Assembly: GCA_963791435.1 (NCBI GenBank)
Contig: CAWBSL010000003.1
Span: forward strand, 421,035 to 485,034
Source of the DNA: Candidatus Dormiibacterota bacterium
GTDB taxonomy: Bacteria; Chloroflexota; Dormibacteria; Aeolococcales; Aeolococcaceae
Length of the DNA: 64,000 nucleotides
Reading direction: 5' to 3'
Of the stretch, positions 9,631 to 56,194 are shown piece by piece (position 1 is the first letter of the stretch; every line of letters starts with the position of its first letter). The notes under the pieces were generated by a model. It had not been told where the DNA came from and did no database searches. It worked only from the letters and a program-made list of their open reading frames with translations. A program made the position numbers and the translations under genes.

Positions 9631-9660
9631 TGCGGCGCAATGATGGCGCAGCGCCGAAAA

Positions 9661-9706
9661 TTGATAGGATCACGTGTATAAATGCTGATAGTACCGCTGA
9701 TAGTAC
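9661..9706. repeat. AT-rich divergent glgX/treY control region with tandem 12-nt repeat GCTGATAGTAC(C/G) x2 plus a third TGATAG copy
   Basis: GCTGATAGTAC occurs at 9684-9694 and 9696-9706, and TTGATAGG at 9661-9668. On the minus strand these read as TACTAT/CTATCA -10-like boxes. Confidence 0.4.
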
Positions 9707-9734
9707 GCGAATTCGGCTCGCTCCGGCAGCGCTT

Positions 9735-12143: not shown

Positions 12144-13936
12144 CCACGCGCCGGATCAGCGTCTGGGCACCCGACGCAAAACAGGTCGAGCTTCTGCTGG
12201 GTGACGACCGCAAGCGGATGGAGGAGAGTGGCGGCGGTTGGTTCGCTTGCAACGCGGTGGTCGCCGCTGACGACGACTACGCGTTCGGCGTCGATGGGAG
12301 TGAGCCGATGCCCGATCCTCGCTCGCGGTTTCAACCGGCGGGCGTCCACGGCGGGTCGCGCCTCGTTGCGCATCCACGCAAGCGTGGCCGCGACGACTGG
12401 CGAGGGTTTCCATCGCGAGACGCTGTCATCTATGAGCTGCACACGGGAACGTTCAGCGCCGAAGGCACGTTCGACGGTGCGATCGGTCACCTGGACCACC
12501 TCGTCGCTCTCGGCATCAATGCGATCGAGGTGATGCCGGTCGCGGAGTTCCCCGGCCGGCGCGGATGGGGATACGACGGCGTCGACCTCTTCGCGCCACA
12601 GAGCACCTACGGTGGCCCGTCCGGGTTCCACCGCCTTGTTGACGCGTGTCACCGCCGCGGTATCGCGGTGATCCTCGACGTCGTGTACAACCATGTTGGT
12701 CCTGAGGGCGACTACCTCGGATCGTTCGGCCCGTACTTCACCAATCGCTACGAGACGCCCTGGGGCAGCGCGTTCAACTTCGACGGCGAGCACTCGGACG
12801 AGGTCCGTCGTTTCGTGCTCGACAACGTGGAGATGTGGGTGCGCGAGTATGCAGTCGATGGGCTGCGGCTCGACGCAGTCCACGCCATCATCGACACCTC
12901 GCCGCTCCACATCCTCGAGGCGATCACGACGCGCGTGGCGGAGCTTGCGGCGGAACTCGGGCGGGAGGTGTGGGTCATCGCGGAGAGCGACAGCAACGAC
13001 CCGCGACTCGTGCGCGATCGAGACCGTGGGGGATACGGCTTGACCGGGCAGTGGAACGATGATTTCCATCACGCGCTGCACTCCGTGCTGACCGGCGAGC
13101 AACACGGGTACTACGAGGACTTCGGCCGCCCGGATGAGATCACCACCGCGCTGCTGCAGTCCTTTGTCTATGCGGGCCAGTACTCGCGACACCGCAAACG
13201 CACGGTCGGGCGCTACGCCGGCGATCTCCCCCAATCCCGATTCATCGTGTACTCACAGAATCACGACCAGGTCGGCAATCGCGCCGCCGGCGAGCGTCTC
13301 TGCCATCTGGTCAGTGACGGACGGGCTCGCATGGCAGCAGCTTTGACACTGCTCTCGCCGATGGTTCCCATGCTCTTCCAGGGCGAGGAATGGGCGGCGA
13401 GCACACCGTTTCAGTACTTCACCGACCTCGGCGATGCGCACCTTCGCAAGGCCGTTACCAACGGGAGGCGCCGTGAGTTCAGAGCGTTCGGCTGGCCCGC
13501 CGATGCTGTACCCGACCCGCAGTCACCCGCGACGTTTCAGCGGTCGGTATTGCGATGGGACGAGGTCCACGATGGAGTCCACGGGCGCATGCTCGGGTGG
13601 TACCGAGCGCTGATCGCACTCCGCCGTTCTCGGGACGAGGCTGTGGACGGCCAGGCCACAACCACCAACGCGTGGTATGACAGCGCCCGCAACCTGTTGC
13701 TGTATTCGCACGCCGACCTGCTCGTGTGTTGCAACTTCGGCGACACTCCCGTCCTCGTGCCCGAAGCCTCGGAGAAAACCCTTGTGCTGTCGCCGGACGA
13801 TGCTGCGTGCTCGGATACAACGCCGTCGCTCAACGCCGACTCGGTCGCCGTCTGGAGCGACGGCCCGGACACACGGGAGCAATCAGCCGGCGTCGGTCGC
13901 TTCCGGCTCCCACAACGGCAGCGACAGGACGAATGA
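12140..13936 (+). CDS. treZ: Maltooligosyl trehalose trehalohydrolase TreZ
   Basis: GH13 motifs [45 protein letters not shown]. The GTG start overlaps the treY stop (ATGTGA). The 3' end overlaps the convergent kinase by about 54 nt. Confidence 0.9.
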   Translation: MTTRRISVWAPDAKQVELLLGDDRKRMEESGGGWFACNAVVAADDDYAFGVDGSEPMPDPRSRFQPAGVHGGSRLVAHPRKRGRDDWRGFPSRDAVIYELHTGTFSAEGTFDGAIGHLDHLVALGINAIEVMPVAEFPGRRGWGYDGVDLFAPQSTYGGPSGFHRLVDACHRRGIAVILDVVYNHVGPEGDYLGSFGPYFTNRYETPWGSAFNFDGEHSDEVRRFVLDNVEMWVREYAVDGLRLDAVHAIIDTSPLHILEAITTRVAELAAELGREVWVIAESDSNDPRLVRDRDRGGYGLTGQWNDDFHHALHSVLTGEQHGYYEDFGRPDEITTALLQSFVYAGQYSRHRKRTVGRYAGDLPQSRFIVYSQNHDQVGNRAAGERLCHLVSDGRARMAAALTLLSPMVPMLFQGEEWAASTPFQYFTDLGDAHLRKAVTNGRRREFRAFGWPADAVPDPQSPATFQRSVLRWDEVHDGVHGRMLGWYRALIALRRSRDEAVDGQATTTNAWYDSARNLLLYSHADLLVCCNFGDTPVLVPEASEKTLVLSPDDAACSDTTPSLNADSVAVWSDGPDTREQSAGVGRFRLPQRQRQDE

Positions 13937-16274
13937 GGTGCCACCGCCGGGTGTCGATTCCGCGGTGATATCCCCACCGTGGAGCCGAGCAAGCTCGCGC
14001 GAGAGATAGAGCCCGAGTCCCGTGCCGGAGATGTGGCTGTTCTCAGGAGTCACCAACCGGCTGAAGCGTGTGAACAAGCGGTGCATCTGCTCCTCCGGAA
14101 TCCCGAGTCCGTGGTCCATGACGGCGATGCGCGCAGAGCCGTCACTCGCCGTAGCGTCGCAGCTGATCTCGCCGCCGTCCGGTGAGAACTTGATCGCATT
14201 GTCGAGGAGATTCCGGAGGACGGTCTCGATCCTCCCCGCATCGACGTTCACGATCACCGTGTCACCGGGCAGACGAACGTCGAGACGGTGGCCCGCGGTG
14301 AGCTGCGGCTGAATCGCCGACGTTGCGGCGGTGACGATCGCGCGCAGGCGTTGGGGTTGCCGGTCGAGGCGCGTGATCCCCTCCTCGAGACGCGCGGTCT
14401 CGAGCATCTCGTTCACGAGCGCGTTCATCTCATCGAGCTTGCGTTCGATGACCGGCATCGCACGTTCGAGCGCCTCGCCGTCGAGCGATTTGTCCGCCAT
14501 CATCGAGAAGTACCCGCGGACGATGGCGATCGGTCCGCGCAATTCGTGCGATGCGAGCTTGAGAAAATCGGAGCGCATCTGCTCCATGGCCCGGGTGCGC
14601 TCGATGTGCTCGTGCAGGCGTTGCGCCTCAGCGTCGGCAAGGGCGCGCATCCGGTGCTCGGACGCCTTGATCTGCCAGACGAGTCCGGCGGCGAACGCGG
14701 CCAGCTGCAACGTCCACGCGTCCTCGTCGCTGAACCCGCCGGGATAGATCGGTTCGTGTGCGGCCAGGACACCAAGGCGTAGTGCTCCAGCGCGCCAGGA
14801 GACCGACATGGTGTCGACGGCCTCCGAACCGTCTTGGCGGACAGGCACGCTCGTGCCGAGCTCGTTCGCATGTCCGCGAAACACGGCATCGCCAAAGACA
14901 ACACGGTCGCGATCCGATGTGCCGCTGGGGTCGCACGGGACCGGTCGCAACTGCGCGAACTCGTCGTCGGTGACACCGTAGGCCCCGGCCGCGGGTGTCA
15001 AACGGGTGCGGTCGGTGCTGAGCCTCCACAGCAACACCCGGCGCGCTCCCACGAGCTCTGCGACGGTTCCGGCGAAGCGTGCGAAGAGATCGGCATCCGA
15101 GGTCGCCGCATCGAGATGGTCGGACACGCTGAGCAGCACCCGCAACGCCTTTTGCTGCGCCTCCTTGGTTTCTGCAAACAGGCTGGCGTTGCGCAATGCG
15201 AGCGCGGCGGAGAGCGCGATCTGTTCGAGGTTTTCCAGGTCGAGCTGCGCGAACTCTTGATTCGAGCGACGGCTCACGGCGAGAATGCCGAGCGCATGGC
15301 CGCTGGTCCGGAGAGGCACGATGACGCGCCGGCGCACGTCGGACAGCTGTTCCTGCATGTCTTCGGGCATGCCAGGCACGTCGGAGAAACCTTCAAACGC
15401 GCCCTCGCCGCTCTCGATCGCGGCGCGAATCTCCGGAGTCAACTCCCATCTCGCCCCGATTCGCGCGGGAGCGCGATCACGGTCGTACCCGGCAATGGCC
15501 TCGATGGAATCCGGCCAGAATTTGGTCACCGTGATGCGATCGACGTCGACTTGCTCGGCGATCCGCTCGACGATTGCCTGAACAACGCGCGACGGGTCGA
15601 GTGACGCCGAAAGCTCACGCGTCGCTTCACTCGTCAGACGCAGGCGTTCGACCAGACGCTGAGTTCGATTCGCGGGCGTCGTCGCCGAGGACGATGATGC
15701 TGATCAAGCGGGTGAAGCGATCCATCACGGCTCTGTCGACGTCGTTGAATGGCCGGCTCTCCGCGCGCCAGAACCCGACAACTCCCGTCGCGACGCGTCC
15801 GTCGGGGAGCGGTGTGCCGGTCGACAAGGGGACGAGGCGTCCCACCCGGATCCGCTCGCGGAACACGTCCGGGGCGGCGCTGTCCGCCGCAGGGTCGGTG
15901 GTCTCGACGGGGGTCTGGTGGAGAATCGCCCGCCCGTGGAGCATTCCTTCGTGGAGCGGCCATTCCCTGCCGATCAGTTCCTCCGCCCAGGGACCGGATC
16001 CGGCGACGACCTGAAAGACGTCCGGTCGCGCGGCGGAGACGATCGAGATGACGCACTCGGCGTCGTCGACGAGATAGGTCGCCTCGACCGCCATGAGTTG
16101 GAGCACCTCCCGGAGTGGGATGGGCGCGCGGGGGTCGCTCGGAACGTCGAGGAGCCGTCCGACGAGGCGCCCGATTGCCTCGTCAACACTTCGCGCAGCA
16201 TCGTCTGGAGGCGGGCTGGTTCCAGGCGCAGCAATCTCAGACGGCGATTCGCTCCGGCTCCCTTCGAGCACCAC
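13883..16274 (-). pseudogene. Soluble multi-GAF sensor histidine kinase HK1; the ORF track splits it into a 215-aa GAF protein and a 548-aa kinase because of an apparent 1-nt frameshift
   Basis: H-box ASHELRGPIAIVRGY and HATPase N/G boxes (LLDNAIKFSPDGG, GTGLGLYLSRELARLHGG); no TM segment. The kinase frame stays open for about 35 codons upstream of GTG 15529, encoding the start of a GAF domain (LRLTSEATRELSASLDPSRVVQAIVERIAEQVDVDRITV) with no ATG/GTG/TTG. It meets the GAF ORF (15627-16274) at the GGG run 15674-15676. Confidence 0.75.
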
Positions 16275-16295
16275 TATACGACGCGTAGACTGACC

Positions 16296-16324
16296 ATTTT
16301 ACTGATATCGACTATATCACCCAA
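16296..16324 (-). promoter_or_regulatory. Candidate sigma70-type promoter for HK1 (TTGGGT-N17-TAAAAT)
   Basis: Minus strand reads TTGGGTgatatagtcgatatcagTAAAAT, about 21 nt upstream of GTG 16274. Confidence 0.35.
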
Positions 16325-16369
16325 GCCACCAGTCTCCTGACGGACGTTCCGATGCTGGTCCACCCAGGC

Positions 16370-16400
16370 TATAGTGACACTATAAGATTTTGTGACAATG
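16370..16400 (+). promoter_or_regulatory. MerR1 control region: perfect 15-nt palindrome TATAGTGACACTATA overlapping island motif CTAT-N9-TGACAATG
   Basis: The palindrome spans 16370-16384. CTATAAGATTTTGTGACAATG spans 16380-16400. TATAAG is a -10-like hexamer. Confidence 0.45.
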
Positions 16401-16474
16401 TGCAAGCCCGACCGATGCTCGATCCCCCATAGCCCGGCGAGGGCGGCAACGCCTTGCCATCCGGAGGCGGCCTG

Positions 16475-16792
16475 ATGAACGGAACAGTCCAGCTCGAGAA
16501 GCCCTTGTACACCCTCGACGTAGCGGCAGAGATGCTGGGAAGCCATCCGCGCACCCTGATCCTCTACGAGGAGCTGGGGGTCGCGAGACGATCAGCCGCC
16601 GGCACCAACAAATGGCGTTTCACGCTTCGCGACATCCTTGCACTGCGAGCGGTTTCGAGGCTGCGCCGCCAGTATCAGATGAACCTGGACGGCGCTCGTC
16701 AGCTGATCCGGTGCGTGCAACTCCTCGATGCGCATCACATCCCTCGGCCCCGCGAGTTGCGAGGCTTTGATCTTGAGCACGTCTCCATCTAA
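16475..16792 (+). CDS. MerR-family regulator, HspR-like HTH (paralog 1 of 3)
   Basis: LEKPLYTLDVAAEMLGSHPRTLILYEELGV reads as a MerR/HspR-type HTH. C-terminus CVQLLDAHHIPRPRELRGFDLEH is shared with the two paralogs. ATG 16475 has GGAGG 8 nt upstream; the ORF-track start is TTG 16454. Confidence 0.85.
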   Translation: MNGTVQLEKPLYTLDVAAEMLGSHPRTLILYEELGVARRSAAGTNKWRFTLRDILALRAVSRLRRQYQMNLDGARQLIRCVQLLDAHHIPRPRELRGFDLEHVSI

Positions 16793-18011
16793 GCGCGTCG
16801 AGGCAACGCGTCGCGGCCGCGCCGCGAACAGCGGTCAATCGGCCCCACGCGCGGCGCGCCCCGCAGCGAGCCGCCCGCGCATCCGTCCGCTCCTCGAGTC
16901 TCGTTCGCTGAAGGCGCTGGTCTGGCTCGCCATCATCCTGGCGCTCATCTGGATCTGCGAAGGCGCGGCGTTCATCCTCGTCCATGTTTTCAACGTGCTG
17001 CTGCTCTTCATCTTCGCGGGCATCATCGCGCTGATCCTCACGCCGCTCGTCGACCGGATGGAGCGAGTGCCACCGTTTCGCGGGCATCGTTCGATCACGG
17101 TTCTACTGATCTACATCGTGGGACTCGCGATTGTCGCGGGCGCCGTGATGTTGTTGCTTCCGACCGTTGTGGCGCAGGTCAAAAGTCTCCCGGCACTCAT
17201 GCAGACCGTCGAGGATCAGTTGCGCCATCACGGCATTTCGTTCAGCGTCGCATCGCTGATCAAAGCGCTGAACGGACAGCAACTCGGTGTCGCGATCGGT
17301 GTCGCGACCGCGTTTGTCTCCGGACTGCTCAGCGTGGTGCTGATCCTGGTGATCTCCATCTACCTGCTCATCGAAGGCCGCGCGGTGGTCGCCACTGCGC
17401 GCAACCTCTTCCCGAGCCGCCAACGGGAGTTCGACTTCGCCGCGCTGGCCGTCGGATCGACCGTGGCGGCCTACGTGCGCGGGCAGATCGTCATGTCATT
17501 TGTCATCGGCGCCTACACCGGCGTCGCACTGACGCTTGTCGGCGTCAAGTACGCGATCCTCATCGGCATCGCCGCATTCTTCCTCGAGTTCGTGCCGATC
17601 GTGGGTGCGGTCGTTGCGATGGGTCTCGCCATTGCCGTTGCGCTCCTGCAAAGCCCGGCGCTCGCGCTGTTTGCGTGCGGCGTCGGCCTCGTCGGGCACG
17701 CGATCGACGCTTACGTGCTCGGTCCACGAGTCTACGGACGCGTGACCAGGCTCCATGCGCTCGTGGCGATGGCCGCGCTGCTGGTCGGCGCCGAACTTGC
17801 AGGAATCCTGGGTGCCCTCTTCGCCGTCCCGGTTGCGGCCGTCGCGAACATCTTCCTTGGCGCTGTGTACCGGGCCCAGCGCGGTGAGCAGGCGATGAGC
17901 ACCGCTCCCGATGAATCGGTGACCGTCGACACGTTGCCGCGTCTCGGCGAAGAGGTCAGCTCGGTGGAGGAGGAGGGGGTCAAGAAGGAGCCCGTGCCGC
18001 ACGGCGTCTGA
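16728..18011 (+). CDS. AI-2E (PerM/UPF0118) family transporter
   Basis: Eight TM helices and the family-typical FLEFVPIVGAVVAMGLAIAVALLQSP. The start is uncertain: in-frame TTG codons at 16767 and 16773 would reduce the overlap with MerR1. Confidence 0.85.
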   Translation: MRITSLGPASCEALILSTSPSKRVEATRRGRAANSGQSAPRAARPAASRPRIRPLLESRSLKALVWLAIILALIWICEGAAFILVHVFNVLLLFIFAGIIALILTPLVDRMERVPPFRGHRSITVLLIYIVGLAIVAGAVMLLLPTVVAQVKSLPALMQTVEDQLRHHGISFSVASLIKALNGQQLGVAIGVATAFVSGLLSVVLILVISIYLLIEGRAVVATARNLFPSRQREFDFAALAVGSTVAAYVRGQIVMSFVIGAYTGVALTLVGVKYAILIGIAAFFLEFVPIVGAVVAMGLAIAVALLQSPALALFACGVGLVGHAIDAYVLGPRVYGRVTRLHALVAMAALLVGAELAGILGALFAVPVAAVANIFLGAVYRAQRGEQAMSTAPDESVTVDTLPRLGEEVSSVEEEGVKKEPVPHGV

Positions 18012-18044
18012 GCGCTGCGCCGGACGGCAGCGACTGGCGCGTCT

Positions 18045-18488
18045 TCAGTACGGGGTATCGGCCGAAGGGATCGCCTGCGACTTGCGCGTCTGCTCGACCT
18101 TGGTGGAGAGCTGAGCCGGGGTGGTGTCCGCTTTGACCAGGAACTCGAGGGCGCCCAACTTGAGGCCGCGCTCGCGCAGCTCGGGTTCCCCGTAGTTGCT
18201 GAGGATGATCACCGGGATGTGGGTCGTCGCGGGCTCGCCACGGAGGTGCTCGAGCACCTCGAACCCGTCGAGACCGGGAAGCCGGAGGTCGAGGTAGATG
18301 AAGTCCGGCGCTTCGTCGGCCGCCATTCGCAGCCCTTCCTCGCCGTCATGAGCCACGACGACCGTGTAGCCGTCTGCCGCGAGGCGCAGCCGGTACATCT
18401 CCGCCGCAGACGAGTTGTCCTCGATCAACAGAACCTTGACGTCGTCATCCACCAAGCTCTCTCCTCTGACCTCCGCCATCGGCGACAA
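18045..18488 (-). CDS. Stand-alone receiver (CheY-like) response regulator RR1, no output domain
   Basis: VKVLLIEDN...DFIYLDLRLPGLDGFEVL...PVIILSN...LEFLVKA has all receiver motifs (DD, phospho-Asp, T/S, K). The protein ends about 15 aa after the receiver. Confidence 0.9.
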   Translation of the reverse strand: MSPMAEVRGESLVDDDVKVLLIEDNSSAAEMYRLRLAADGYTVVVAHDGEEGLRMAADEAPDFIYLDLRLPGLDGFEVLEHLRGEPATTHIPVIILSNYGEPELRERGLKLGALEFLVKADTTPAQLSTKVEQTRKSQAIPSADTPY

Positions 18489-18613
18489 CCCCTGGCATCT
18501 GCGCCCATCTCACTGCGTTGGTTCTCATGCTCACGACTGTCTCTTCCGTACGGTAGCGCACAAACCGGGACGATTGGCGGTGGTACCGACGCTCCAACCC
18601 TCGACCGCATGGC

Positions 18614-18634
18614 CATTGTCAAACATTATGATAG
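18614..18634 (-). promoter_or_regulatory. Island motif copy upstream of RR1: CTATCATAATGTTTGACAATG
   Basis: Read on the minus strand, it has the same CTAT-N9-TGACAATG spacing as the MerR1 copy. TATCAT/CATAAT are -10-like. Confidence 0.4.
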
Positions 18635-18744
18635 CGGCTATAGGATGCTCGAGGGGGAGGTGCGGCCGGCGACCAGGCGCCCTGGGTCGTCTGATGGCCG
18701 CCCTATGGCCGCCTCATGCCTGCTGGCAGAAACGACAGTGCACG

Positions 18745-18786
18745 CTATAAGATAACTTGACAGTGCGGATGTCAAGGTGCTAGTGT
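18745..18786 (+). promoter_or_regulatory. MerR2 promoter: island motif CTATAAGATAACTTGACAGTG, TTGACA-N18-TAGTGT, and HAIR-like inverted repeat CTTGACA-N7-TGTCAAG
   Basis: TTGACA at 18757-18762 and TAGTGT at 18781-18786. The perfect 7-N7-7 inverted repeat at 18756-18776 overlaps the -35 box and spacer. Confidence 0.5.
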
Positions 18787-18978
18787 CGTCGCAGGGGGAA
18801 GGTCCACTCGTGAATCAAGAATTCCCCTCCCCAAAGCCCACCCCGCCGGGGTTCATCCCCCGGCCGGGGTGGCCAATCCAAGAGGCGGCATCGGCCGCTC
18901 TGTGGGTGCAGCCAGCGAGGTATACACTCGCGCTGATGACCGCGTTGGCTCAACGCTGAGCTCGTCGATGCGTCGCCG

Positions 18979-19323
18979 GTGACGCGCGGCGCTCCTGCGA
19001 GCAGCGCCGTGCAGAAGCTGAATCTCGACAAGCCGCTGTACACCATCGGGATCGCGGCGGAAATCCTCTCCACGCATACGCGGACATTGATGATGTACGA
19101 GCATCTCGGTCTCGTCGTCCCCAGCCGCACCACAACAAACCGCCGGCTGTATTCGCAGCGCGACATCATCACTCTGAGCGCGATCCAGCAGCTCACGCGC
19201 AAGTTCGGGCTCAACCTGATCAGCGCGAAGTATCTGATCCTCTGCCTGCAGCTGCTCGACGTGCACGGTGTCCCGCGGCCGGCCGGCCTCGCGGATCTCG
19301 ACGTCGAGCACGCGAGAGTCTGA
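18979..19323 (+). CDS. MerR-family regulator, HspR-like HTH (paralog 2 of 3)
   Basis: LDKPLYTIGIAAEILSTHTRTLMMYEHLGLVVPSRTTTNRRLYSQRDI; C-terminus CLQLLDVHGVPRPAGLADLDVEH. GTG start. Confidence 0.85.
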   Translation: MTRGAPASSAVQKLNLDKPLYTIGIAAEILSTHTRTLMMYEHLGLVVPSRTTTNRRLYSQRDIITLSAIQQLTRKFGLNLISAKYLILCLQLLDVHGVPRPAGLADLDVEHARV

Positions 19324-19333
19324 GGTTGCTCCC

Positions 19334-20083
19334 CTACTGTTCGATGCTGTCGGAGCGGTCCCTGAATCGCGCCACCGCGTCGGAGATGGTCTCCTCGAGA
19401 TACCGGTAGAACAGGCGACGCTGGGAGATGTCGATCGCCGCTTCGACGTCCTGCCCCTCTCGACGCCGCGCGATCCACGGTGGCACGCCGTCGGCGACCG
19501 TTTCGGTGCCCACGCGGACGTGCACGAGTGAGTCGTTGTCCTCCGCGACGTGGAGAGTCACGTTGAGGATCGGTCCGGTGTGCTCGACGAGGCGCCAGCT
19601 GCGCTCCCACCTGGTGTTGCGATGGAAGTCGTGCGTGCGTCGCGCCGCGTTGTCGGCGATCACGCTCTCTCCGGGGCGCGCCGCGCGTGCGAGGAGCCTC
19701 CGGATGTCTCTGTCGATATCACGACCGATGAAGTCGACGAGCGACGGCGCACGGTCGTCAACATCCGGGTGTCCGCTCTGGTCGCGGGCGAGCTCGCCGA
19801 TCGCCTGAACGGTCCCTGCATGACGGCGGCAGTACACGACGCCGCCGAGCGAGATGCTGTGCGCTGGGCAGATGGTGGCTGAGCACGTGCGCTCGCGACG
19901 GTCGCGATAGGCGCAGAGCTGCGCGGTGTTGTTGGTGCACCCTCGCATCGTGCAGGTGATGCCCGATGCCGTCTGCGGTGGCGGTGCGGGATGCTCGCGG
20001 CGCCGGAACAGTGCTGTCGCGGGGAGCGCACCGAGTCGTCGAAGTGCGCCCGTTTCCTTGCGGGGAGTTTCCACAGTCAGCAC
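19334..20083 (-). CDS. Hypothetical protein with an N-terminal Cys/His-rich (putative metal-binding) segment; last gene of the MerR3 operon
   Basis: 249-aa ORF. ITCTMRGCTNNTAQLCAYRDRRERTCSATICPAHSISLGGVVYCRRHAG has 7 Cys and 2 His in 50 residues. Codon third positions are G/C-rich. No family was recognised. Confidence 0.6.
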   Translation of the reverse strand: MLTVETPRKETGALRRLGALPATALFRRREHPAPPPQTASGITCTMRGCTNNTAQLCAYRDRRERTCSATICPAHSISLGGVVYCRRHAGTVQAIGELARDQSGHPDVDDRAPSLVDFIGRDIDRDIRRLLARAARPGESVIADNAARRTHDFHRNTRWERSWRLVEHTGPILNVTLHVAEDNDSLVHVRVGTETVADGVPPWIARRREGQDVEAAIDISQRRLFYRYLEETISDAVARFRDRSDSIEQ

Positions 20084-20240
20084 GTTACGTGTCCTCCAAG
20101 TCCCACTCTCTTGCGCGGGCCACCCTCGCTCGCGCTACTGAGGTAATCAGACCCCACCGACGGCGCGGTCGTGGGCGTATGCGACGGTTTGCGATGCAGC
20201 GTTCACACGCGGTGACGCGAGGCAACCGCGGCCCCAGGCG

Positions 20241-20621
20241 TTATGCGGGTTCGGTGCCCGAAGACGCCTGCAGGGCGGCGATGCGCTCCTGCCAGAACTC
20301 GAGTCGCCGCTCGAAACGAGCCGCTTCTGCGGTGAGCACCTTGAGGTCCGTCTCCTCAACCTCCGACCCCGCGTCGTCATGCATCTCCTCCATCCGCTCC
20401 TCGGCGACCGAGAGGAGATCCCGTTTGAAGTCGAGCAATTCCAGATAGACCTTGGCCCAGTGCATGGCGTCGTCGAGGTACGCGGTGTTCTCGTCCTCGC
20501 CTTCGAGCAGCCGCTCGGGCTCGACCGCGTCGAGTGCCGCCTTGCGCGCCTCGCGAGGCGGCGGCGGTTCGGGGAGGTCGCTGCCCGCTGCCGAGGCCTC
20601 CGGCGTGTCAATGCTGCTCAC
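20241..20621 (-). CDS. Hypothetical acidic helical (coiled-coil-like) protein, translationally coupled to RR2
   Basis: 126-aa ORF rich in E/D/L/R (AKVYLELLDFKRDLLSVAEERMEEMHDDAGSEVEETDLKVLTAEAARFERRLEFWQERIAAL). Its start overlaps the RR2 stop (20618-20621). Confidence 0.55.
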   Translation of the reverse strand: MSSIDTPEASAAGSDLPEPPPPREARKAALDAVEPERLLEGEDENTAYLDDAMHWAKVYLELLDFKRDLLSVAEERMEEMHDDAGSEVEETDLKVLTAEAARFERRLEFWQERIAALQASSGTEPA

Positions 20622-21001
20622 GACAGCATCTTTCGCGTCGCCTCGGCGAGAGCCGCCGGCGGCGTGTGCGCTTTGACGAGATAGTCGTGCGCGCCAAGGG
20701 CTCGCCCGCGCTCGACCAACTCCGGTTCGCTGAAATTGGTGAGGATGACGACGGGTATGCGAGCCGTCGCCGGCCCGGCGCGAAGCTGCTGCAGAACGTC
20801 GAAGCCGTGCATCTCCGGGAGGCCGAGGTCGAGATAGATGAGGTCTGGGGCTTCCGTTCCGGCGCGGCGGATCGCTTCCTTGCCCGAGTGCGCGGTGATG
20901 ACCTGAAATCCGTGGGCGGCGAGCTGCATCTCGTACATGGTCGCGACGTCAACATCGTCGTCGACGAGCAGCAGTCGGATTCCGTGTGACCCATCAGGCA
21001 T
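20618..21001 (-). CDS. Stand-alone receiver response regulator RR2
   Basis: MPDGSHGIRLLLVDDD...DLIYLDLGLPEMHGFDVL...PVVILTN...DYLVKA. ATG 21001 overlaps the HK2 stop (20994-20996). The 75 extra N-terminal residues in the ORF track are not protein-like. Confidence 0.9.
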   Translation of the reverse strand: MPDGSHGIRLLLVDDDVDVATMYEMQLAAHGFQVITAHSGKEAIRRAGTEAPDLIYLDLGLPEMHGFDVLQQLRAGPATARIPVVILTNFSEPELVERGRALGAHDYLVKAHTPPAALAEATRKMLS

Positions 21002-22877
21002 CGTCTCTCCCCGCTGGCCTTTGACGTCCGCGCGGCAAACGCAGCGTGAATGTACTCCCTTCGCCAGGGTGCGATGCGACGTCGATGTCCCCGCCCTGGG
21101 CTTGCGCAAGGCCACGCGAGAGGTGCAGGCCGAGGCCCGTTCCCTGTATCCCTGCGGCGACGGCTTCCGGCAGCCGGCCGAATGGTTGAAACAACTTCGG
21201 CAGGTCCGCGTCAGCGATGCCCTCACCGTGATCGGTCACGTCGACGGCAGCCCATCGCGGCTCCGCGCGCACCGTCATGGTGACCGCACCACCGTCAGAT
21301 GAGTACTTCACCGCGTTGGAGACGAGGTTGCTGAGTATCGTCTCGACCTGTTCCGGGTCGGCGCGGACGCGGACCCGCCCGGCCGACTGCACGCTGACGG
21401 TCCGCGCGGCTTGCCCCGAGACCGCGTTGCCCGCTGCAGCGGCCACCGATCGCGCCAGAGCGTCGAGGCTGAACTCTTTCGTGTGCTGACCACGGGCGCG
21501 AATCTCCATCCGGCTGGTGGTGAGCATCCGGTCGACCAGCGCACTCATGTGCCGCATTCGTGCGGCCATCAAGGGCACGACTTTCGCGGCGGGCGCCGGA
21601 AGATCGCCGAGCGATCCGTCCTCGAGCATCGAGAGGTAGCCACTCACCAGCGTGATCGGTCCGCGGAGCTCGTGTGACGCCAGCTGGAGGAACTCCGACT
21701 TCTGCTGCTCGAGCTCCGCCATCCGCTGCGCGTGCGTCTCGAGCCTGTCGAGCTCTGCCGCCTGCAATCCCTGGGCACGCTGTTCAGCGGCATAGCCCTG
21801 CCAGACGAGCGCCGACGACCGTGCAGCGAGACGGATGATCCACTCGTCCTGGTCGCTGAAGCCCGCGATCGAGTTCCATGCGGCGAGAATGCCGAGCGGG
21901 ATCGCCGCGGTGCGCCAGGGCACGGCCAGCACGTCATGCGCGCCGAGGCGGGCGATCATCGAGCCGGGATGCGTCGCCAGGTACGCGTCATCCAGGCTGA
22001 GCCGGACGGCCTCGCCAGAGAAGAGGAGTTGAGCAAGGTCCGTGTCGCCCCTCGCGTCGAGCACCCCGCGTGCCGGCCGCCCCGCGGCTGCTTGCTCAAC
22101 CGCGGTGCCGGGCTGATGGAGCGGGATCAGCTCCTCGCCCGTGAGCTGCCAGAAGCCGGCATGCTCGGCTGAGACCAGGCTCGCCACGGTCTCGCTCATC
22201 TTCTCGAAGTACGTGGCCGGCTCCACGCTGGACGCCATGTGTCGCGACATCTGCGTCAGCGCGTCCAGCCCACGGCGCTGTGCGCTCCGAACCTCGTCGA
22301 CGAGGCGCGCGTTGCGCAACGCGAGGATGGCCAGGGGTCCGACCTGCTGCAGGCCTTCGAGCTCGCGCGGGACGAAGGGGCGATCGCTGCGCCTGCTGAG
22401 GATCAGGACCGCGCCCACGGTCTCCCCGATCGCAAGAGGAACGATCGCGGTATGGCGGATCGACAGCAATGACGGCGCGAGCTCGGGCTCGGAGGCCGCT
22501 CGGGCGCCGAGGCTGCCGCCGAAGACGATCGCACCGGTCGTGACCGCTTCGCTGAGCAAGGGCTGCCTCGCCAGCCAGGCCATGGGGTACTCGTGACCCA
22601 CGAAGTCAGGCCGGCCGCCAGGCTCGTAACTTGCTTCGACTCGAAGGACGTTCTGGTCGAGGCTGGTCAGGGTGCAGCGGTCGACATCGACGTTCTCAGC
22701 CGCAAAGCGCACGAGACGTTCCATGATCTCGTGCGGCTCACCACGGGACACCAGATCCGCCTCGATCGACCCTGCGAGATGGGCCGGTTCCGGCGCCTGG
22801 GGTGGAAGGTCAGAGACGAACGTGCTCGATGTCAATTCCGGCGAGCTCCGGTGGCCGAGGGATGCCGTGGGCGTCAA
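20994..22877 (-). CDS. Soluble GAF-GAF sensor histidine kinase HK2
   Basis: H-box ASHELRGPITLVSGY; HATPase motifs LVSNAVKYSSDGG and GTGLGLHLSRGLAQAQGG; two GAF-like regions; no TM segment. The ORF-track start is TTG 22877 and overlaps MerR3 by 68 nt; ATG 22724 (MERLVRFAAENV) is an alternative start. Confidence 0.85.
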   Translation of the reverse strand: MTPTASLGHRSSPELTSSTFVSDLPPQAPEPAHLAGSIEADLVSRGEPHEIMERLVRFAAENVDVDRCTLTSLDQNVLRVEASYEPGGRPDFVGHEYPMAWLARQPLLSEAVTTGAIVFGGSLGARAASEPELAPSLLSIRHTAIVPLAIGETVGAVLILSRRSDRPFVPRELEGLQQVGPLAILALRNARLVDEVRSAQRRGLDALTQMSRHMASSVEPATYFEKMSETVASLVSAEHAGFWQLTGEELIPLHQPGTAVEQAAAGRPARGVLDARGDTDLAQLLFSGEAVRLSLDDAYLATHPGSMIARLGAHDVLAVPWRTAAIPLGILAAWNSIAGFSDQDEWIIRLAARSSALVWQGYAAEQRAQGLQAAELDRLETHAQRMAELEQQKSEFLQLASHELRGPITLVSGYLSMLEDGSLGDLPAPAAKVVPLMAARMRHMSALVDRMLTTSRMEIRARGQHTKEFSLDALARSVAAAAGNAVSGQAARTVSVQSAGRVRVRADPEQVETILSNLVSNAVKYSSDGGAVTMTVRAEPRWAAVDVTDHGEGIADADLPKLFQPFGRLPEAVAAGIQGTGLGLHLSRGLAQAQGGDIDVASHPGEGSTFTLRLPRGRQRPAGRDDA

Positions 22878-23154
22878 GCAGCTGGAGGCACTTGATCACG
22901 TACCGGGCCCCCGCGATGTTCAGGCCGGACTGGCGCGTCAGCCGCTGGATCGCACTCAGCGTGAGGATGTCGCGCTGGGAATACCGCCGCCGGTTCGTGG
23001 CAGTTCGCTCCGGAACGCCGAGACCCATCGTCTCGTACATCATCAGTGTACGTGGGTGGCTGGCAAGGATCTCAGCGGCGACGCTGATCGTATAGAGCGG
23101 CTTGTCGAGGTCGAGCAGCCGCTCCGACGTCGGAATACCCGCCTCAGCAGGCAT
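22810..23154 (-). CDS. MerR-family regulator, HspR-like HTH (paralog 3 of 3)
   Basis: LDKPLYTISVAAEILASHPRTLMMYETMGLGVPERTATNRRRYSQRDI; C-terminus CLQLLDAHGIPRPPELAGIDIEH. Confidence 0.85.
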   Translation of the reverse strand: MPAEAGIPTSERLLDLDKPLYTISVAAEILASHPRTLMMYETMGLGVPERTATNRRRYSQRDILTLSAIQRLTRQSGLNIAGARYVIKCLQLLDAHGIPRPPELAGIDIEHVRL

Positions 23155-23241
23155 ACGGCTCGCGAGCGGCAGGCATCATCACCGCGATTCTATATGCCTG
23201 TCGCCGCGTCGCTCGCCGAGGTGCATCCTCGGCGGATCGCG

Positions 23242-23445
23242 TCAGACGAGGCTGGCGCTGGTGACGGGGCGCTGGCGGAAGAACTGCACGCGGCAGTGGT
23301 CGCAGCGGAAGACGAGACGCAGCCCGAGGCGTCCAAGGACGTTGGTGATGCGCGAACTGCATTGCGGGCAGGTCGCGGCCTCTTCGAGGTAGGGTCCTTC
23401 CACCGGCTTGACGTCGAGTTGAATCGGCTTGTATTTGCGAGCCAT
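23242..23445 (-). CDS. 67-aa zinc-ribbon mini-protein (CPQC...CDHC), first gene of the MerR3-HK2-RR2 operon
   Basis: MARKYKPIQLDVKPVEGPYLEEAATCPQCSSRITNVLGRLGLRLVFRCDHCRVQFF. GGAGG lies 7 nt upstream of ATG 23445. The longer ORF-track model (to 23712) is not supported. Confidence 0.6.
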   Translation of the reverse strand: MARKYKPIQLDVKPVEGPYLEEAATCPQCSSRITNVLGRLGLRLVFRCDHCRVQFFRQRPVTSASLV

Positions 23446-23498
23446 CGGGTACCTCCAGGTGTCGTGGGACATTGCTCCCGTCCCCACTGCCAGGAATA

Positions 23499-23519
23499 TC
23501 CTATCACAAAACATGATAG
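23499..23519 (-). promoter_or_regulatory. Island motif copy upstream of the zinc-ribbon/MerR3 operon: CTATCATGTTTTGTGATAGGA
   Basis: Read on the minus strand, it has the same CTAT-N9-TGAYA spacing. The region also forms CTATCA-N7-TGATAG and CATGATAG-N12-CTATCATG inverted repeats (23501-23539). Confidence 0.4.
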
Positions 23520-23547
23520 TGGCGCTATTGGCTATCATGTGACGACC

Positions 23548-23715
23548 ATGATCGAGATGTTCTCCCCGGATGGGACGCAGGTACCCGCCGCGCGCCGTCC
23601 GCGCTCGGTGAGACGGCGGCGCAGGCGTGACGTTCGCGCACTGGTGACCGGCGCTGCCCTCGTGATGGCCGTCGCCTGGACGATGGTCCTCGGAGCCGGC
23701 ATCTTCCTCCACTGA
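23548..23715 (+). CDS. Candidate 55-aa Arg-rich single-pass membrane mini-protein upstream of RR3-HK3
   Basis: MIEMFSPDGTQVPAARRPRSVRRRRRRDVRALVTGAALVMAVAWTMVLGAGIFLH. Codon third positions are strongly G/C. A TATCAT box lies about 9 nt upstream of the ATG. It is not listed separately in the ORF track (it forms the tail of 22672-23715). Confidence 0.4.
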   Translation: MIEMFSPDGTQVPAARRPRSVRRRRRRDVRALVTGAALVMAVAWTMVLGAGIFLH

Positions 23716-23844
23716 ACGGGGAGTTGGGTGCGGTCTGTCACCGCGTCATCGAACGTGTGAGCAGTTGGTTTGCTACCGTACCTATGACGTCGTTTGGCAT
23801 TCGCCGAAGGAGCGAAAGCTTCAGCGGCCAAGGAGGAGTGTGTA

Positions 23845-24240
23845 GTGGAGGATGACGTCAAAGTCCTGCTCATCGAGGACGACGTCGCCGCTGCGGAGAT
23901 GTACCGCCTGCGCCTCGTCGCCGACGGCTATGTGGTCGTCATCGGGCACGACGGGGCCGAGGGGCTGCGTCTGGCGTCCGAAGAATCCCCCGACTTCATC
24001 TATCTGGACCTGCGCATGCCCGGGCTTGACGGCTTCGAGGTGCTCGAGCGGCTTCGCGCCGAGCCCGCGACGATGAACATCCCGGTGATCATCCTGACCA
24101 ACTTCGGCGAGCCCGAGTTGCGCGAACGCGGCATGCGGCTCGGAGCACTCGAATTCCTGGTGAAGGCGGACACCACCCCTGCTCACCTCTCTGAGAGCGT
24201 CGAGCGGGCTGTCGGCCCGCGCGCACTTCCGTCGGCCTGA
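23845..24240 (+). CDS. Stand-alone receiver response regulator RR3 (close paralog of RR1)
   Basis: VKVLLIEDD...DFIYLDLRMPGLDGFEVL...PVIILTN...LEFLVKADTTPA. GTG 23845 is preceded by AAGGAGGAG. The ORF-track start is 23794. Confidence 0.9.
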   Translation: MEDDVKVLLIEDDVAAAEMYRLRLVADGYVVVIGHDGAEGLRLASEESPDFIYLDLRMPGLDGFEVLERLRAEPATMNIPVIILTNFGEPELRERGMRLGALEFLVKADTTPAHLSESVERAVGPRALPSA

Positions 24241-24283
24241 GGCCGGCGGCTCGTCGTCCGCCCCGCCCCGGTATTCAGCGTGG

Positions 24284-25396
24284 ATGACCTTGCGCTCATC
24301 GAGGGCGCCTCAGGTGCGTTCCTTCGCGACGCCGTCCAACTTGCCTCGCGTCGTTGCGTCTGGCACGGGTGCCCCTCGGCAGACGTGGTTGTTGCTCCTT
24401 CGAGGCGATCTCCTGACCTGCGTCGCGGCGTCCGGAACCCGCGACGGCGCAATCTCCCGCGCGTATCGCGTGGCAGATCGCCCGAGCTTCGAGGAAGCGA
24501 TCACATCGGGCGAGATCACAGCCGGTCCGGCTGAGGTGCTCGTTCCTGTTCACAGTGACGGTGCCGTGGTGGGGCTCCTGATGATCGACGGGGGGCACGA
24601 TCTCAGCGACCACGATCGACACACCTGGTCGACGCTCGCCGGCCTCATGGGGTTTGGGATCAGCCAGGCCGCCACGGTCGATCACCTCCAGCAGGAGGCC
24701 GAACGCAGCCGCGGCCTCGAAAGCCTCAAGGGCGAGTTTCTCAATATCGCCGCGCACGAGTTGCGCAGCCCGCTGGGGATCATCCGGGGCTACGCCTCGA
24801 TGCTCAGCGAGGGGACGCTTCCCGAGGCGGACCGGGGCACGGCGCTGGCGCGCATCGCGGAGAAGGCCGAGGAGATGGCACGCCTCATCTCCGACATGCT
24901 GGAGACAGCCCGCCTGGAGACCCTCGGCCTCGAACTGGAACTCGAGCCGGTCGATCTCCTCCGCGTCATCGATATGGCGGTAGGCGAGATGCGGCCGCTC
25001 CTCGGCAACAAGCATCGGTTTGCGGTCGCGGAGCATCCGGATTCGATCGCTGTGGTGGCCGATCAAAAGCGTCTCACGGCGATGCTCACCAACCTGATCG
25101 ACAACGCCATCAAATACTCGCCGGGCGGCGGCGACATCGAGGTGGCGTGCGAGCACGACGGCCGGGTGGCGAGGGTCACGGTCCGCGACCATGGCATCGG
25201 CATCAACGCCGAGCAGGCCCACATGCTCTTCACCCGGTTCGGTCGCCTCGTGACGCCGGAGACGAGCCATATTCGCGGGACTGGGCTCGGGCTCTACCTC
25301 GCCCGCGAAACCGCCCGCCTTCATGGCGGTGACATCCAGGGAAGCTCGACGCCCGGCGGCGGCAGCACGTTCACGGTGGTGCTTCCGCTCGCCTGA
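24284..25396 (+). CDS. Soluble GAF sensor histidine kinase HK3 (kinase core paralogous to HK1)
   Basis: H-box AAHELRSPLGIIRGY; HATPase motifs LIDNAIKYSPGGG and GTGLGLYLARETARLHGG. LFTRFGRLVTPETSHIRGTG is nearly identical to the HK1 equivalent. No TM segment. Confidence 0.85.
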   Translation: MTLRSSRAPQVRSFATPSNLPRVVASGTGAPRQTWLLLLRGDLLTCVAASGTRDGAISRAYRVADRPSFEEAITSGEITAGPAEVLVPVHSDGAVVGLLMIDGGHDLSDHDRHTWSTLAGLMGFGISQAATVDHLQQEAERSRGLESLKGEFLNIAAHELRSPLGIIRGYASMLSEGTLPEADRGTALARIAEKAEEMARLISDMLETARLETLGLELELEPVDLLRVIDMAVGEMRPLLGNKHRFAVAEHPDSIAVVADQKRLTAMLTNLIDNAIKYSPGGGDIEVACEHDGRVARVTVRDHGIGINAEQAHMLFTRFGRLVTPETSHIRGTGLGLYLARETARLHGGDIQGSSTPGGGSTFTVVLPLA

Positions 25397-25573: not shown

Positions 25574-26095
25574 TCAGGAGCCCTCGGGCGGCGCGTTCTC
25601 CTCCACGTATTCCTCGGGATCCCTGTCCTCGATGGTGATGCCTCGCGCGCCGGCATGCTCGGTTTCGAACGCCGCGAACGCCGTGGCCAGCTCGGCCTGC
25701 TCGCCAGACGACGCGGCATCGTCGAACTCGATGAGCGGTCCTTTCTCCTCCTCATCCATGTGCTCGGTGTTGGCGTCGTCGGTGGCCTTGACGGCGTCCC
25801 ACCAGGCGTTCTCGCCGATGGCATGCTGCTCGGCCTCGCGGATGCCGTCGCGGATCTCGTTGTGGTCCCTGATCGCATCCTTGGTGTCGTCAACGGAGTC
25901 GGAATCGTCCTTGAGCAGGCGTGGGTAGAAGAGCGTCTCCTCGGCTGCCGCATGCACCTCGAGGCGAGCTGACAGCACCGTCCAGATCGAGGTGACGGTT
26001 GCTTCGTCGCCCCGCGCGGCATCGAGCGCCGCGAACTGACTCCGGAACCAGATGTGGTCCATGCGGATGATGTCGGTCACACGGTTCGTTTGCAT
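25574..26095 (-). CDS. Hemerythrin (HHE cation-binding) domain protein
   Basis: MDHIWFRSQF, EVHAAAEETLFYP, IRDHNEIRD and EHMDEEE give the His/Glu ligand pattern of hemerythrin-like domains. ATG 26095 is preceded by GAGGAG. Confidence 0.8.
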   Translation of the reverse strand: MQTNRVTDIIRMDHIWFRSQFAALDAARGDEATVTSIWTVLSARLEVHAAAEETLFYPRLLKDDSDSVDDTKDAIRDHNEIRDGIREAEQHAIGENAWWDAVKATDDANTEHMDEEEKGPLIEFDDAASSGEQAELATAFAAFETEHAGARGITIEDRDPEEYVEENAPPEGS

Positions 26096-26205
26096 GCGAC
26101 TCCTCGTCAGTGGACGGAGGCGGGGCCCAGCCTCGAGTGAGCACCCCCCACGCCAGTCTGAAGGTGTTGGATTTAGTGATAGTACAGATGTTGCAAACTG
26201 GCGGT

Positions 26206-56148: not shown

Positions 56149-56194
56149 TCGCGCCGCAATCATCACCGCCAGTCATGACCATGGAGGGTCTGCA

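Follow-up and report, generated by a model that had tools for sequence, protein, structure and literature searches.

Roughly one-sixth of bacterial response regulators (RRs) are stand-alone receivers, mostly without a known target, and the locus described here raises the question of how such proteins may reach DNA. It lies in a 64-kb stretch of Candidatus Dormibacterota DNA (contig CAWBSL010000003.1, positions 421,035 to 485,034 of the forward strand; hereafter the window), from a phylum that is abundant in soil and permafrost and uncultured. Between 13.9 and 25.4 kb of the window, three MerR proteins of 105-114 aa, three receiver-only RRs and three histidine kinases (HKs) without a transmembrane (TM) segment are encoded in one island.

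We read the island, with somewhat less than even confidence, as a paralogous cytoplasmic signalling cluster in which these mini-MerRs would be the DNA-binding part and would be switched by partners encoded with them, phosphorylated receivers included. So far, the cluster has been found only in Candidatus Dormibacterota. Some regulatory link between the MerR family and the receiver and kinase genes is highly probable, and direct control of a mini-MerR by a receiver is plausible though doubtful. The comparative signal is strong, but the organism is uncultured, and we infer the key step as well as who binds whom, the sign of the regulation and the signal that is sensed.

Linkage of mini-MerR genes to receiver and kinase genes

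Hidden Markov models (HMMs) built from the window proteins were mapped onto the six-frame open reading frames (ORFs) of 84 loci. A REC gene lay within 1.5 kb of 65 of the 110 MerR genes (59%), a roughly 13-fold enrichment over the 4.4% predicted by how often receivers occur at distances above 5 kb in these loci (7 per 519 kb). Because the 110 copies are not independent of each other, it is the number of clades that counts. Five were resolved by neighbour joining of 113 MerR copies, and the context of each is fixed. REC or kinase genes are direct neighbours of MerR in four of these clades, arranged as ZnR-MerR-HK-RR (ZnR being a Zn-ribbon mini-protein), as HK divergent from MerR, as REC-HK divergent from MerR, and as MerR-REC-MerR. 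Since each of the five clades has a fixed context, the juxtaposition with receivers and kinases has been kept, or has arisen, in several independent arrangements. The MerR-receiver arrangement exceeds chance. An earlier note, made from the letters of this DNA (the original prediction), had taken a lack of linkage between MerR and receiver or GAF-kinase genes in other genomes as grounds for its refutation; it was not refuted on this point, the linkage being kept in four of six clades, counting the five of the tree and a MerR-ZnR sister lineage.

The family itself is restricted to Dormibacterota metagenome-assembled genomes (MAGs) and has multiplied within them. When one genome per GTDB species was scanned, 330 MerR relatives were found, nearly all of them in Dormibacterota MAGs, and the few others look misbinned; the homologs of MerR3 carry the names Candidatus Dormibacteria or Dormibacterota. 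A HMMER search over 1.84 billion representatives returned only 16 clusters at E <= 1e-30. Few of its matches reached the C-terminal tail of the MerR proteins, and beyond these they covered the helix-turn-helix (HTH) only, as in HspR-like proteins. Distant clusters that keep the tail were also queried, and the two out of ten that have a source name were Dormibacteraeota.

Gene content and organisation of the island

Genes were picked from an ORF listing together with codon-position G+C (G+C of the window, 66%). Domains of the MerR proteins, RRs and HKs were called with Pfam; RR2 lay outside the Pfam scan and was identified by alignment to RR1 and RR3 and with a REC HMM built from the three RRs of the window. 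The main genes of the island are listed below.

13883..16274, minus strand: HK1, soluble kinase with the order GAF0-GAFa-GAFb-HisKA-HATPase_c (Pfam and own HMM map); frame broken in the window
16475..16792, plus strand: MerR1, fast-evolving type I mini-MerR (MerR_1, E 4e-8), divergent from HK1 and upstream of the AI-2E transporter gene
16728..18011, plus strand: AI-2E family (PerM-like) membrane transporter (AI-2E_transport, E 6e-45), 3' of MerR1; start codon uncertain
18045..18488, minus strand: RR1, receiver-only, partner of HK1; Response_reg is its sole Pfam domain
18979..19323, plus strand: MerR2, type I mini-MerR (MerR_1, E 5e-13), convergent with the Cys-rich gene
19334..20083, minus strand: Cys-rich protein (Cys) of 249 aa, last gene of the MerR3 string; no family match
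20241..20624, minus strand: acidic helical-hairpin protein (Acid), overlapping the RR2 stop by 7 nt
20618..21001, minus strand: RR2, receiver-only (own REC HMM), overlapping the HK2 stop by 8 nt
20994..22877, minus strand: HK2, soluble kinase with the order GAF-GAF-HisKA-HATPase_c (Pfam)
22810..23154, minus strand: MerR3, type I mini-MerR (MerR_1, E 1.5e-14), second gene of the string ZnR-MerR3-HK2-RR2-Acid-Cys
23242..23445, minus strand: ZnR, Zn-ribbon mini-protein of 67 aa (CPxC...CDxC), first gene of the MerR3 operon
23794..24240, plus strand: RR3, receiver-only, Response_reg its sole Pfam domain; likely start GTG 23845, giving 131 aa
24284..25396, plus strand: HK3, short soluble kinase with a degenerate GAF-like N-terminus, HisKA and HATPase_c (Pfam)

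Much of the original prediction of the gene content was confirmed. MerR_1 was found in all three MerR ORFs, each time above the Pfam gathering score, and an alignment of 14 MerR sequences showed the predicted HTH and the shared C-terminal motif C(L/V)QLLDxH..PRP..L..(D)xEH. The three receiver-only proteins were recovered as well, RR1 and RR3 by Pfam and RR2 by the alignment and the REC HMM. The single tightly coupled operon around MerR3 is tight in part: HK2 and RR2 overlap by 8 nt and RR2 and Acid by 7 nt, but about 58 nt separate MerR3 from HK2 (assuming that HK2 starts at GTG 22751) and 157 nt separate Acid from the Cys-rich gene.

Four contexts of the MerR genes, A to D, were distinguished in the loci. 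In context A, HK3-RR3 diverge from ZnR-MerR3-HK2-RR2-Acid-Cys, followed by MerR2, RR1, AI-2E, (MerR1) and HK1, and this order is syntenic in more than 20 species; the position of the AI-2E transporter is likewise syntenic in relatives by our own HMM map, and the context of the MerR1 clade is fixed, with GAF0 on the opposite strand at one side and AI2E on the same strand at the other. In context B, a homolog of Acid lies about 0.1-1.3 kb 3' of the MerR gene, and two-component genes are absent. Context C consists of an RR3/HK3-like operon divergent from MerR (L059-L062 and L065). Context D is a MerR-REC-MerR string with no kinase inside; its downstream MerR is of type II, so that a type I and a type II protein flank the receiver, and in one such locus (L075) the downstream MerR ORF shares 16 nt with the REC ORF. 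Type II MerR proteins are those without the cysteine, and their tail reads LLKxL..GVxPP..LxDxDVxQLD.

Two further observations concern the surroundings of MerR genes in relatives. In L007 (14698-16333), as also in L012, L013, L016, L021, L024 and L026, MerR2 ends an operon with genes for a 217-aa protein and for STAS- and MEDS-domain proteins; these resemble components of partner-switching systems and are absent from the window. A stand-alone B12-binding protein is encoded about 3.5 kb 3' of a context B/ZnR MerR in L001 (13902-14243) and L010 (13307-13738). It recalls the MerR-B12 regulators of the CarH/LitR type, and a MerR-B12 fusion (P0213) was among the distant HTH matches.

Receiver-only proteins

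The RRs are 127-148 aa long. RR1 and RR3 had been described as nearly identical; their identity is 74.6%, and RR2 (127 aa) is about 54% identical to RR1 or RR3 and aligns with both over about 120 residues. The original prediction that no RR has a DNA-binding output held: because Response_reg is the sole Pfam domain of RR1 and RR3 and RR2 has 127 aa, there is no room for an output domain in any of them. RR3 likely starts at GTG 23845, where a ribosome-binding site (RBS) is seen, and its L007 homolog also has 131 aa.

When 92 MerR-linked receivers were aligned to CheY, the acidic pocket, the phospho-Asp, the Ser/Thr and the Lys were found to be kept, and the strongest conservation ran from beta4 to beta5. 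RR1 retains the catalytic D/D/S/K residues. A single clade unites all MerR-linked receivers, namely RR1, RR2, RR3 and those of types C and D. The RR2 group branches off first within it, and the other receivers found in this DNA fall outside. In L018 and L026, RR1 lies directly upstream of HK1 in the same orientation, which argues for the cognate pairs RR1-HK1, HK2-RR2 and RR3-HK3.

A nearly invariant element, GGTACGGTA(G/C)CA(G/A)AC (TGCTACCGTACC on the plus strand), was seen about 70 nt upstream of RR3 in L007-L053. At 23771-23787 of the window it stands between a small membrane ORF and RR3, and its role might be that of an internal promoter or of an RNA element.

Soluble kinases

Both HisKA and HATPase_c were detected by Pfam in all three kinases, with H-boxes reading SHELRGP/AHELRSP, and no TM-like 19-residue window was present in any of them (Kyte-Doolittle maximum 1.83, in HK2 within GAF). 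The proposal of soluble multi-GAF kinases stood in that no TM segment was found and that GAF domains are clear in HK1 and HK2, but the N-terminus of HK3 matched GAF_2 at 18.4 bits, below the cut-off of 28.6. The cores of HK1 and HK3, previously called close paralogs, are the closest pair but not close (48.5% identity versus 38-40% for the other pairs).

HK1 includes the ORF at 15627-16274, which is its third GAF; relatives such as L007 have a single ORF of about 800 aa. In the window the gene is split into the ORFs 15627-16274 and 13883-15703 by a 1-nt frameshift, an extra A in GAATCGAACTCAG (15659-15671). The frameshift was placed by comparison at the protein level with five relatives that read uninterrupted through ...GDDARESTQ(H/R)LVERLRL...; megablast of this region against close loci gave no match. 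Either the homopolymer was misassembled, or HK1 is a recent pseudogene here. The true start of HK2 is likely GTG 22751, which is preceded by a GAGG RBS, and the homolog in L007 was called at 579 aa. Remnants of HK2/RR2 were noticed between MerR3 and Acid in two loci (L018, 10352-10685; L031, 10383-11156), as left by a recent deletion of the pair.

In the mycobacterial DosS/DosT-DosR system, too, the kinases are soluble, lack a TM segment and sense through two GAF domains in tandem. However, neither DosS nor DosT was among the PDB chains that the search with HK2 matched at E<=0.001, all of which scored best in the kinase core (residues 340-625); moreover, the DHp of the island kinases is HisKA (PF00512), and their partners are receiver-only proteins, not a NarL-type DosR. 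The idea that the GAF domains are DosS/DosT-like or bilin sensors was rejected, as the search gave no solved GAF relative and reading of the sequences gave no conserved Cys.

Anatomy and identity of the mini-MerRs

The MerR proteins carry no ligand-binding domain. The HTH of MerR2 and MerR3 begins at residue 21 and that of MerR1 at residue 12, with an invariant L-D-K-P just before it. An AlphaFold2 model of MerR3, of moderate confidence (predicted local distance difference test, pLDDT, 68), contains a winged helix-turn-helix (wHTH), a single helix of 17 residues (80-96) and an 18-residue tail; the long antiparallel coiled coil and the effector region of canonical MerR proteins are absent from it.

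Among PDB entries, the best profile match was GlnR of B. subtilis (4r4e, E 1e-8), ahead of other GlnR/TnrA chains, and Foldseek with the MerR3 model ranked GlnR-DNA first, with about 32-33% identity over the wHTH. The TnrA/GlnR branch has about 11-20 extra residues before the wHTH, no coiled coil and a C-terminal protein-binding sensor (PMC4335299). The window MerRs share with it the N-terminal extension and a C-terminus that is not a coiled coil, and the small size (110-135 aa in GlnR/TnrA). The operator geometry is also alike, 5-N7-5 in both cases, with TGTNA-N7-TNACA there and TGATA-N7-TATCA as the candidate here. By sequence, however, the proteins fall outside the family, scoring 20.1 and 26.5 bits with the NCBIfam TnrA equivalog against its cut-off of 140. 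The sequences of operator and tail differ too, glnA did not appear among the annotated genes flanking MerR in L001-L010, and the partners encoded alongside here are ZnR, Acid and receivers, not glutamine synthetase. We would say from this comparison that the window MerRs appear to work like GlnR/TnrA without being members of that family.

The HspR-likeness named in the original prediction extends to the HTH only. HspR of Actinobacteria, Helicobacter and Deinococcus is the closest NCBIfam family (NF047375) and has a similar HTH motif, and JGI labels many of the homologs 'heat shock protein HspR', but the three MerRs score 78.8, 70.2 and 46.2 bits, all under the equivalog cut-off of 105 bits. 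They also differ in the shorter C-terminus and in having several paralogs per genome. The HTH-only matches outside the family include proteins with DnaJ_C and Clp_N segments; in the flanks inspected, however (those of L001-L010 annotated with Pfam and the gene calls of L061, L075, L095 and L106), none of dnaK, grpE, dnaJ or clpB was seen. The operator of HspR is the HAIR box, CTTGAGT-N7-ACTCAAG. Reading of three intergenic regions gave no HAIR box (the consensus was not run as a search pattern), and a different palindrome is conserved. What the two do have in common is activity that is, or would be, modulated by protein partners. DnaK is one such partner of HspR. Modulation of HspR by CbpA has also been described (PMC7074700).

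A candidate operator in the intergenic regions

The following elements, and one neighbouring gene, bear on where the mini-MerRs may bind.

16303..16319, no strand: candidate MerR operator TGATATCGACTATATCA (TGATA-N7-TATCA), an exact palindrome between HK1 and MerR1
18629..18775, no strand: RR1/MerR2 intergenic elements, TGATAGCGGCTATAGGA (2 mismatches versus the operator) and a perfect TTGACA-N7-TGTCAA palindrome at 18757-18775
23499..23545, no strand: footprint between the divergent operons, TGATAG/CTATCA half-sites in 5-N7-5 spacing (23-species alignment)
25574..26098, minus strand: hemerythrin gene (Pfam Hemerythrin, E 7e-13), convergent with HK3

Upstream of ZnR-MerR3, on the minus strand, an invariant core CTATCAYGTTTTGTGATAGGAT preceded by an ATGATAG half-site was found in 23 species, and the operator site scan gave TGATAGTGGCGCTATTG at window 23514. 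The block conserved upstream of MerR1/HK1 in seven species is TGATAGCGACTATATCA, which is exact in the window at 16303-16319, while the footprints in contexts C and B read TATAGACTGACTATCA and TGATAGTGATACTATAA, respectively. Their common core, TGATA-N7-TATCA, is a candidate operator of the mini-MerRs. With at most one mismatch, it was present at 117 sites in 1.41 Mb of loci versus about 5 expected by our own calculation from base composition. The site at 16303 is the sole exact one in the window, and five of the nine window sites with at most two mismatches lie inside the three island intergenic regions, where an inverted-repeat finder had missed such short 5-N7-5 sites. Sites recur upstream of HK1 even where MerR1 is missing, and upstream of a second ZnR.

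Relatives also have an exact site where, in L007 coordinates, the hemerythrin gene lies just downstream (L013, 6977; L018, 6947; L021, 6874; and others), the window site near this gene being degenerate (CAACA-N7-TATCA). The hemerythrin gene is thus a possible member of the regulon. Context D shows other conserved blocks. Upstream of MerR2, no conserved operator could be derived, the stretch being coding (the 217-aa/STAS/MEDS operon) in most relatives.

Other motifs were noted in the same regions. CTATARGAT (3 matches versus 0.04 expected) was tried as an operator and rejected, as it behaves like a -10 element across loci (TTGACT-N17-TATAGGAT). A scan of the island for sigma-70 and terminator consensus sequences gave nothing above shuffles, these consensus sequences not being informative for this phylum. 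The perfect palindrome CTTGACA-N7-TGTCAAG between RR1 and MerR2 (18756-18776), which carries TTGACA on both strands, is unique in the window and not conserved, since relatives differ in this region, and its geometry is like that of the HAIR and TnrA boxes. The MerR-Acid pairs of context B (L001 and L027-L054) are preceded by a highly conserved stretch of some 32 nt, GCCCCATTTNNGGTGCACGCGACTAGAATCG, which is situated about 100-130 nt before the MerR start and is unrelated to the TGATA palindrome.

Small proteins encoded with the mini-MerRs

ZnR, Acid and the Cys-rich protein belong to three families without a Pfam or NCBIfam match above threshold, and no description of them was found in the literature searched. 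ZnR has a weak match to Zn_ribbon_PaaD and no Pfam domain; its family gave 14 matches among 5.8 billion proteins. It precedes MerR in the island, and a ZnR-MerR pair stands alone in L010. Acid, the second frequent partner of MerR, gave 141 matches in the same 5.8 billion and likewise has no Pfam domain. Wherever a source name was given, homologs of ZnR and Acid came from Dormibacterota or a misbinned MAG. In the AlphaFold2 model of Acid (pLDDT 77), two helices span residues 50-80 and 84-123. The 249-aa Cys-rich protein matched nothing in Pfam or NCBIfam; its position in the island is conserved, and its GTG start is preceded by the RBS GGAGG.

The original prediction had overlooked one more small gene, upstream of RR3:

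23548..23715, plus strand: small membrane ORF of 55 aa with one hydrophobic helix

This ORF is called as a 60-aa gene in L007-L009 (Kyte-Doolittle 2.19), and a block at its position is conserved in 21 of 23 aligned species. Its N-terminus is Arg-rich, and the protein might anchor HK3, itself soluble, or pass input to it. Around the MerR-ZnR pairs of the sister lineage, two annotated loci showed a divergent MntP-type manganese exporter and a Zincin_2 metallopeptidase as neighbours, a hint that the role of the ancestral MerR-ZnR pair may have to do with metals or redox state.

A possible mechanism and competing explanations

The mini-MerRs lack an effector domain, and protein partners switch their closest relatives. 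We therefore consider them to be switched by co-encoded small proteins, as GlnR/TnrA are by glutamine synthetase and BluR by BluF. In the mechanism that we propose, a mini-MerR would bind palindromes of the TGATA-N7-TATCA type both in its own promoter and in the divergent one, and would thereby control the operon that encodes it, the kinase and receiver genes next to it and probably a hemerythrin gene. The soluble GAF kinases would sense an intracellular ligand and phosphorylate their cognate receivers (RR1-HK1, HK2-RR2, RR3-HK3). The phosphorylated receiver would then alter the dimerisation or DNA binding of the mini-MerR, amounting to a response regulator split into two polypeptides, and ZnR, as the ancestral partner, and Acid may act as further modulators. 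A stricter form of this 'split response regulator', in which a dedicated receiver clade docks on a separate GlnR/HspR-like mini-MerR and ZnR and Acid are obligatory further subunits, seems to us rather unlikely but worth considering; in it, the MerR-REC-MerR operon may supply a type I/type II heteropair.

Several observations weigh against control of the mini-MerRs by receivers. ZnR is the deepest conserved and most constant partner of MerR: when metagenome contigs were scanned with the type II branch, a ZnR homolog stood directly after MerR in 74 of the 80 sister-lineage loci (L085-L164), and no receiver or kinase was present in the flanks. The C-terminal tail of MerR is conserved in this sister clade as well and is therefore not receiver-specific. 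The operons of L018, L031 and L043 have lost the HK2-RR2 pair but kept MerR, Acid and Cys, and many MerR3-like copies are accompanied solely by Acid, as in context B. No REC-MerR fusion occurred among the ten longest proteins (215-1015 aa) of 150 listed representatives, where the fusions were tandem MerR, MerR-BON, MerR-B12 and DnaJ_C-MerR-Clp_N. Finally, the confidence of the MerR3 model is only moderate, and the candidate operator, derived by eye from phylogenetic footprints, overlaps AT-rich promoter elements.

Much of this would be expected if the mini-MerRs were ordinary local (auto)regulators of the two-component genes, an explanation that we take seriously although we think it will probably prove wrong. 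In that case their input would come through ZnR, Acid or the type I cysteine, and the receivers would have their effect elsewhere, whether as phosphate sinks, by modulating kinases or through other targets. Besides the universal presence of ZnR, its pairing with MerR away from any receiver, the MerR-Acid pairs without two-component genes and the operons otherwise intact after loss of HK2-RR2, it is favoured by the operator-like palindromes in the promoters of kinase and receiver operons. It also draws on Cys89, which is invariant in the 14 sequences of the MerR alignment, mostly of type I; yet this residue is replaced in type II and some type I copies, and Cys89 as a universal thiol sensor was rejected, Leu, Thr or Gln standing there instead. 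Local regulation leaves unexplained, moreover, why one receiver clade tracks MerR through four gene orders and why a MerR-REC-MerR operon exists without a kinase, the REC and second MerR genes even overlapping in L075, and it leaves the receivers without an output.

It is quite improbable that the island encodes a multi-step phosphorelay in which Acid, as a histidine phosphotransferase like Spo0B, ChpT or a histidine phosphotransfer (HPt) protein, passes phosphate between receivers. Three kinases and three receiver-only proteins would suit such a relay, as would the 7-nt overlap of the RR2 and Acid genes and the long helical hairpin of Acid with its invariant His55 and Lys58 at +3. However, Acid as a DHp/HPt-like phosphotransferase was rejected: comparison of its profile with the DHp of the island kinases (hhalign) gave a probability of 0.1%, Pfam gave no HPt or HisKA match to Acid, and the fold search with its model (Foldseek) gave generic hairpins only. 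Acid also often stands beside MerR where no receiver is adjacent, and a terminal regulator with an output domain is missing. As for the mini-MerRs being bona fide HspR repressors with DnaK as corepressor and a two-component neighbourhood of no meaning, we consider this the least probable explanation, given the scores, inspected flanks and palindromes described above and because at least three paralogs per genome each keep a fixed non-chaperone context.

Comparison with known systems and significance

Direct contact between a signalling protein and a MerR-type regulator has a precedent in the BluR-BluF (YcgE-YcgF) system of E. coli, where the signalling protein antagonises a MerR-like repressor by direct binding and not through a small ligand (PMC3509220). 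The systems differ in that the partner there is a BLUF-EAL photoreceptor and BluR is a full-length MerR-like protein, and the lineages are unrelated. Receivers without an output domain are known to act by protein contact or phosphotransfer in CheY, DivK, Spo0F, SdrG and PhyR-NepR. To our knowledge, none of these pathways targets a MerR-type transcription factor, and the island differs from them in that no HPt or anti-sigma component was identified in it.

The component families are familiar, and their combination is not described in the literature searched. Neither a system of MerR, receiver-only protein and GAF kinase nor a regulator of Dormibacterota was found in targeted literature searches or by a term search of one Dormibacteraeota genome paper, in agreement with the original prediction that this is not a described system. 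If true, a separately encoded transcription factor as the target of a receiver would be a testable model of how orphan receivers reach DNA, and MerR-type output in trans would join the known outputs of two-component systems. It would also extend the principle of the partner-switched mini-MerR (GlnR/TnrA-glutamine synthetase, BluR-BluF, HspR-DnaK) to phosphorylation-dependent partners. The candidate operator opens regulon prediction in complete Dormibacterota genomes.

Neighbouring genes

TreY/TreZ-like genes (maltooligosyl-trehalose synthase and trehalohydrolase, from reading of the translations) lie directly upstream of the island at window 9576-13936 on the plus strand and overlap the stop region of HK1, on the opposite strand, by about 50 nt. 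The trehalose-synthesis and hemerythrin neighbours hint at a stress or dormancy circuit. A second signalling cluster was seen at window 55750-58873 on the plus strand, with a receiver, a kinase core and two more receiver domains of the hybrid kinase type; its receivers fall outside the MerR-linked receiver clade.

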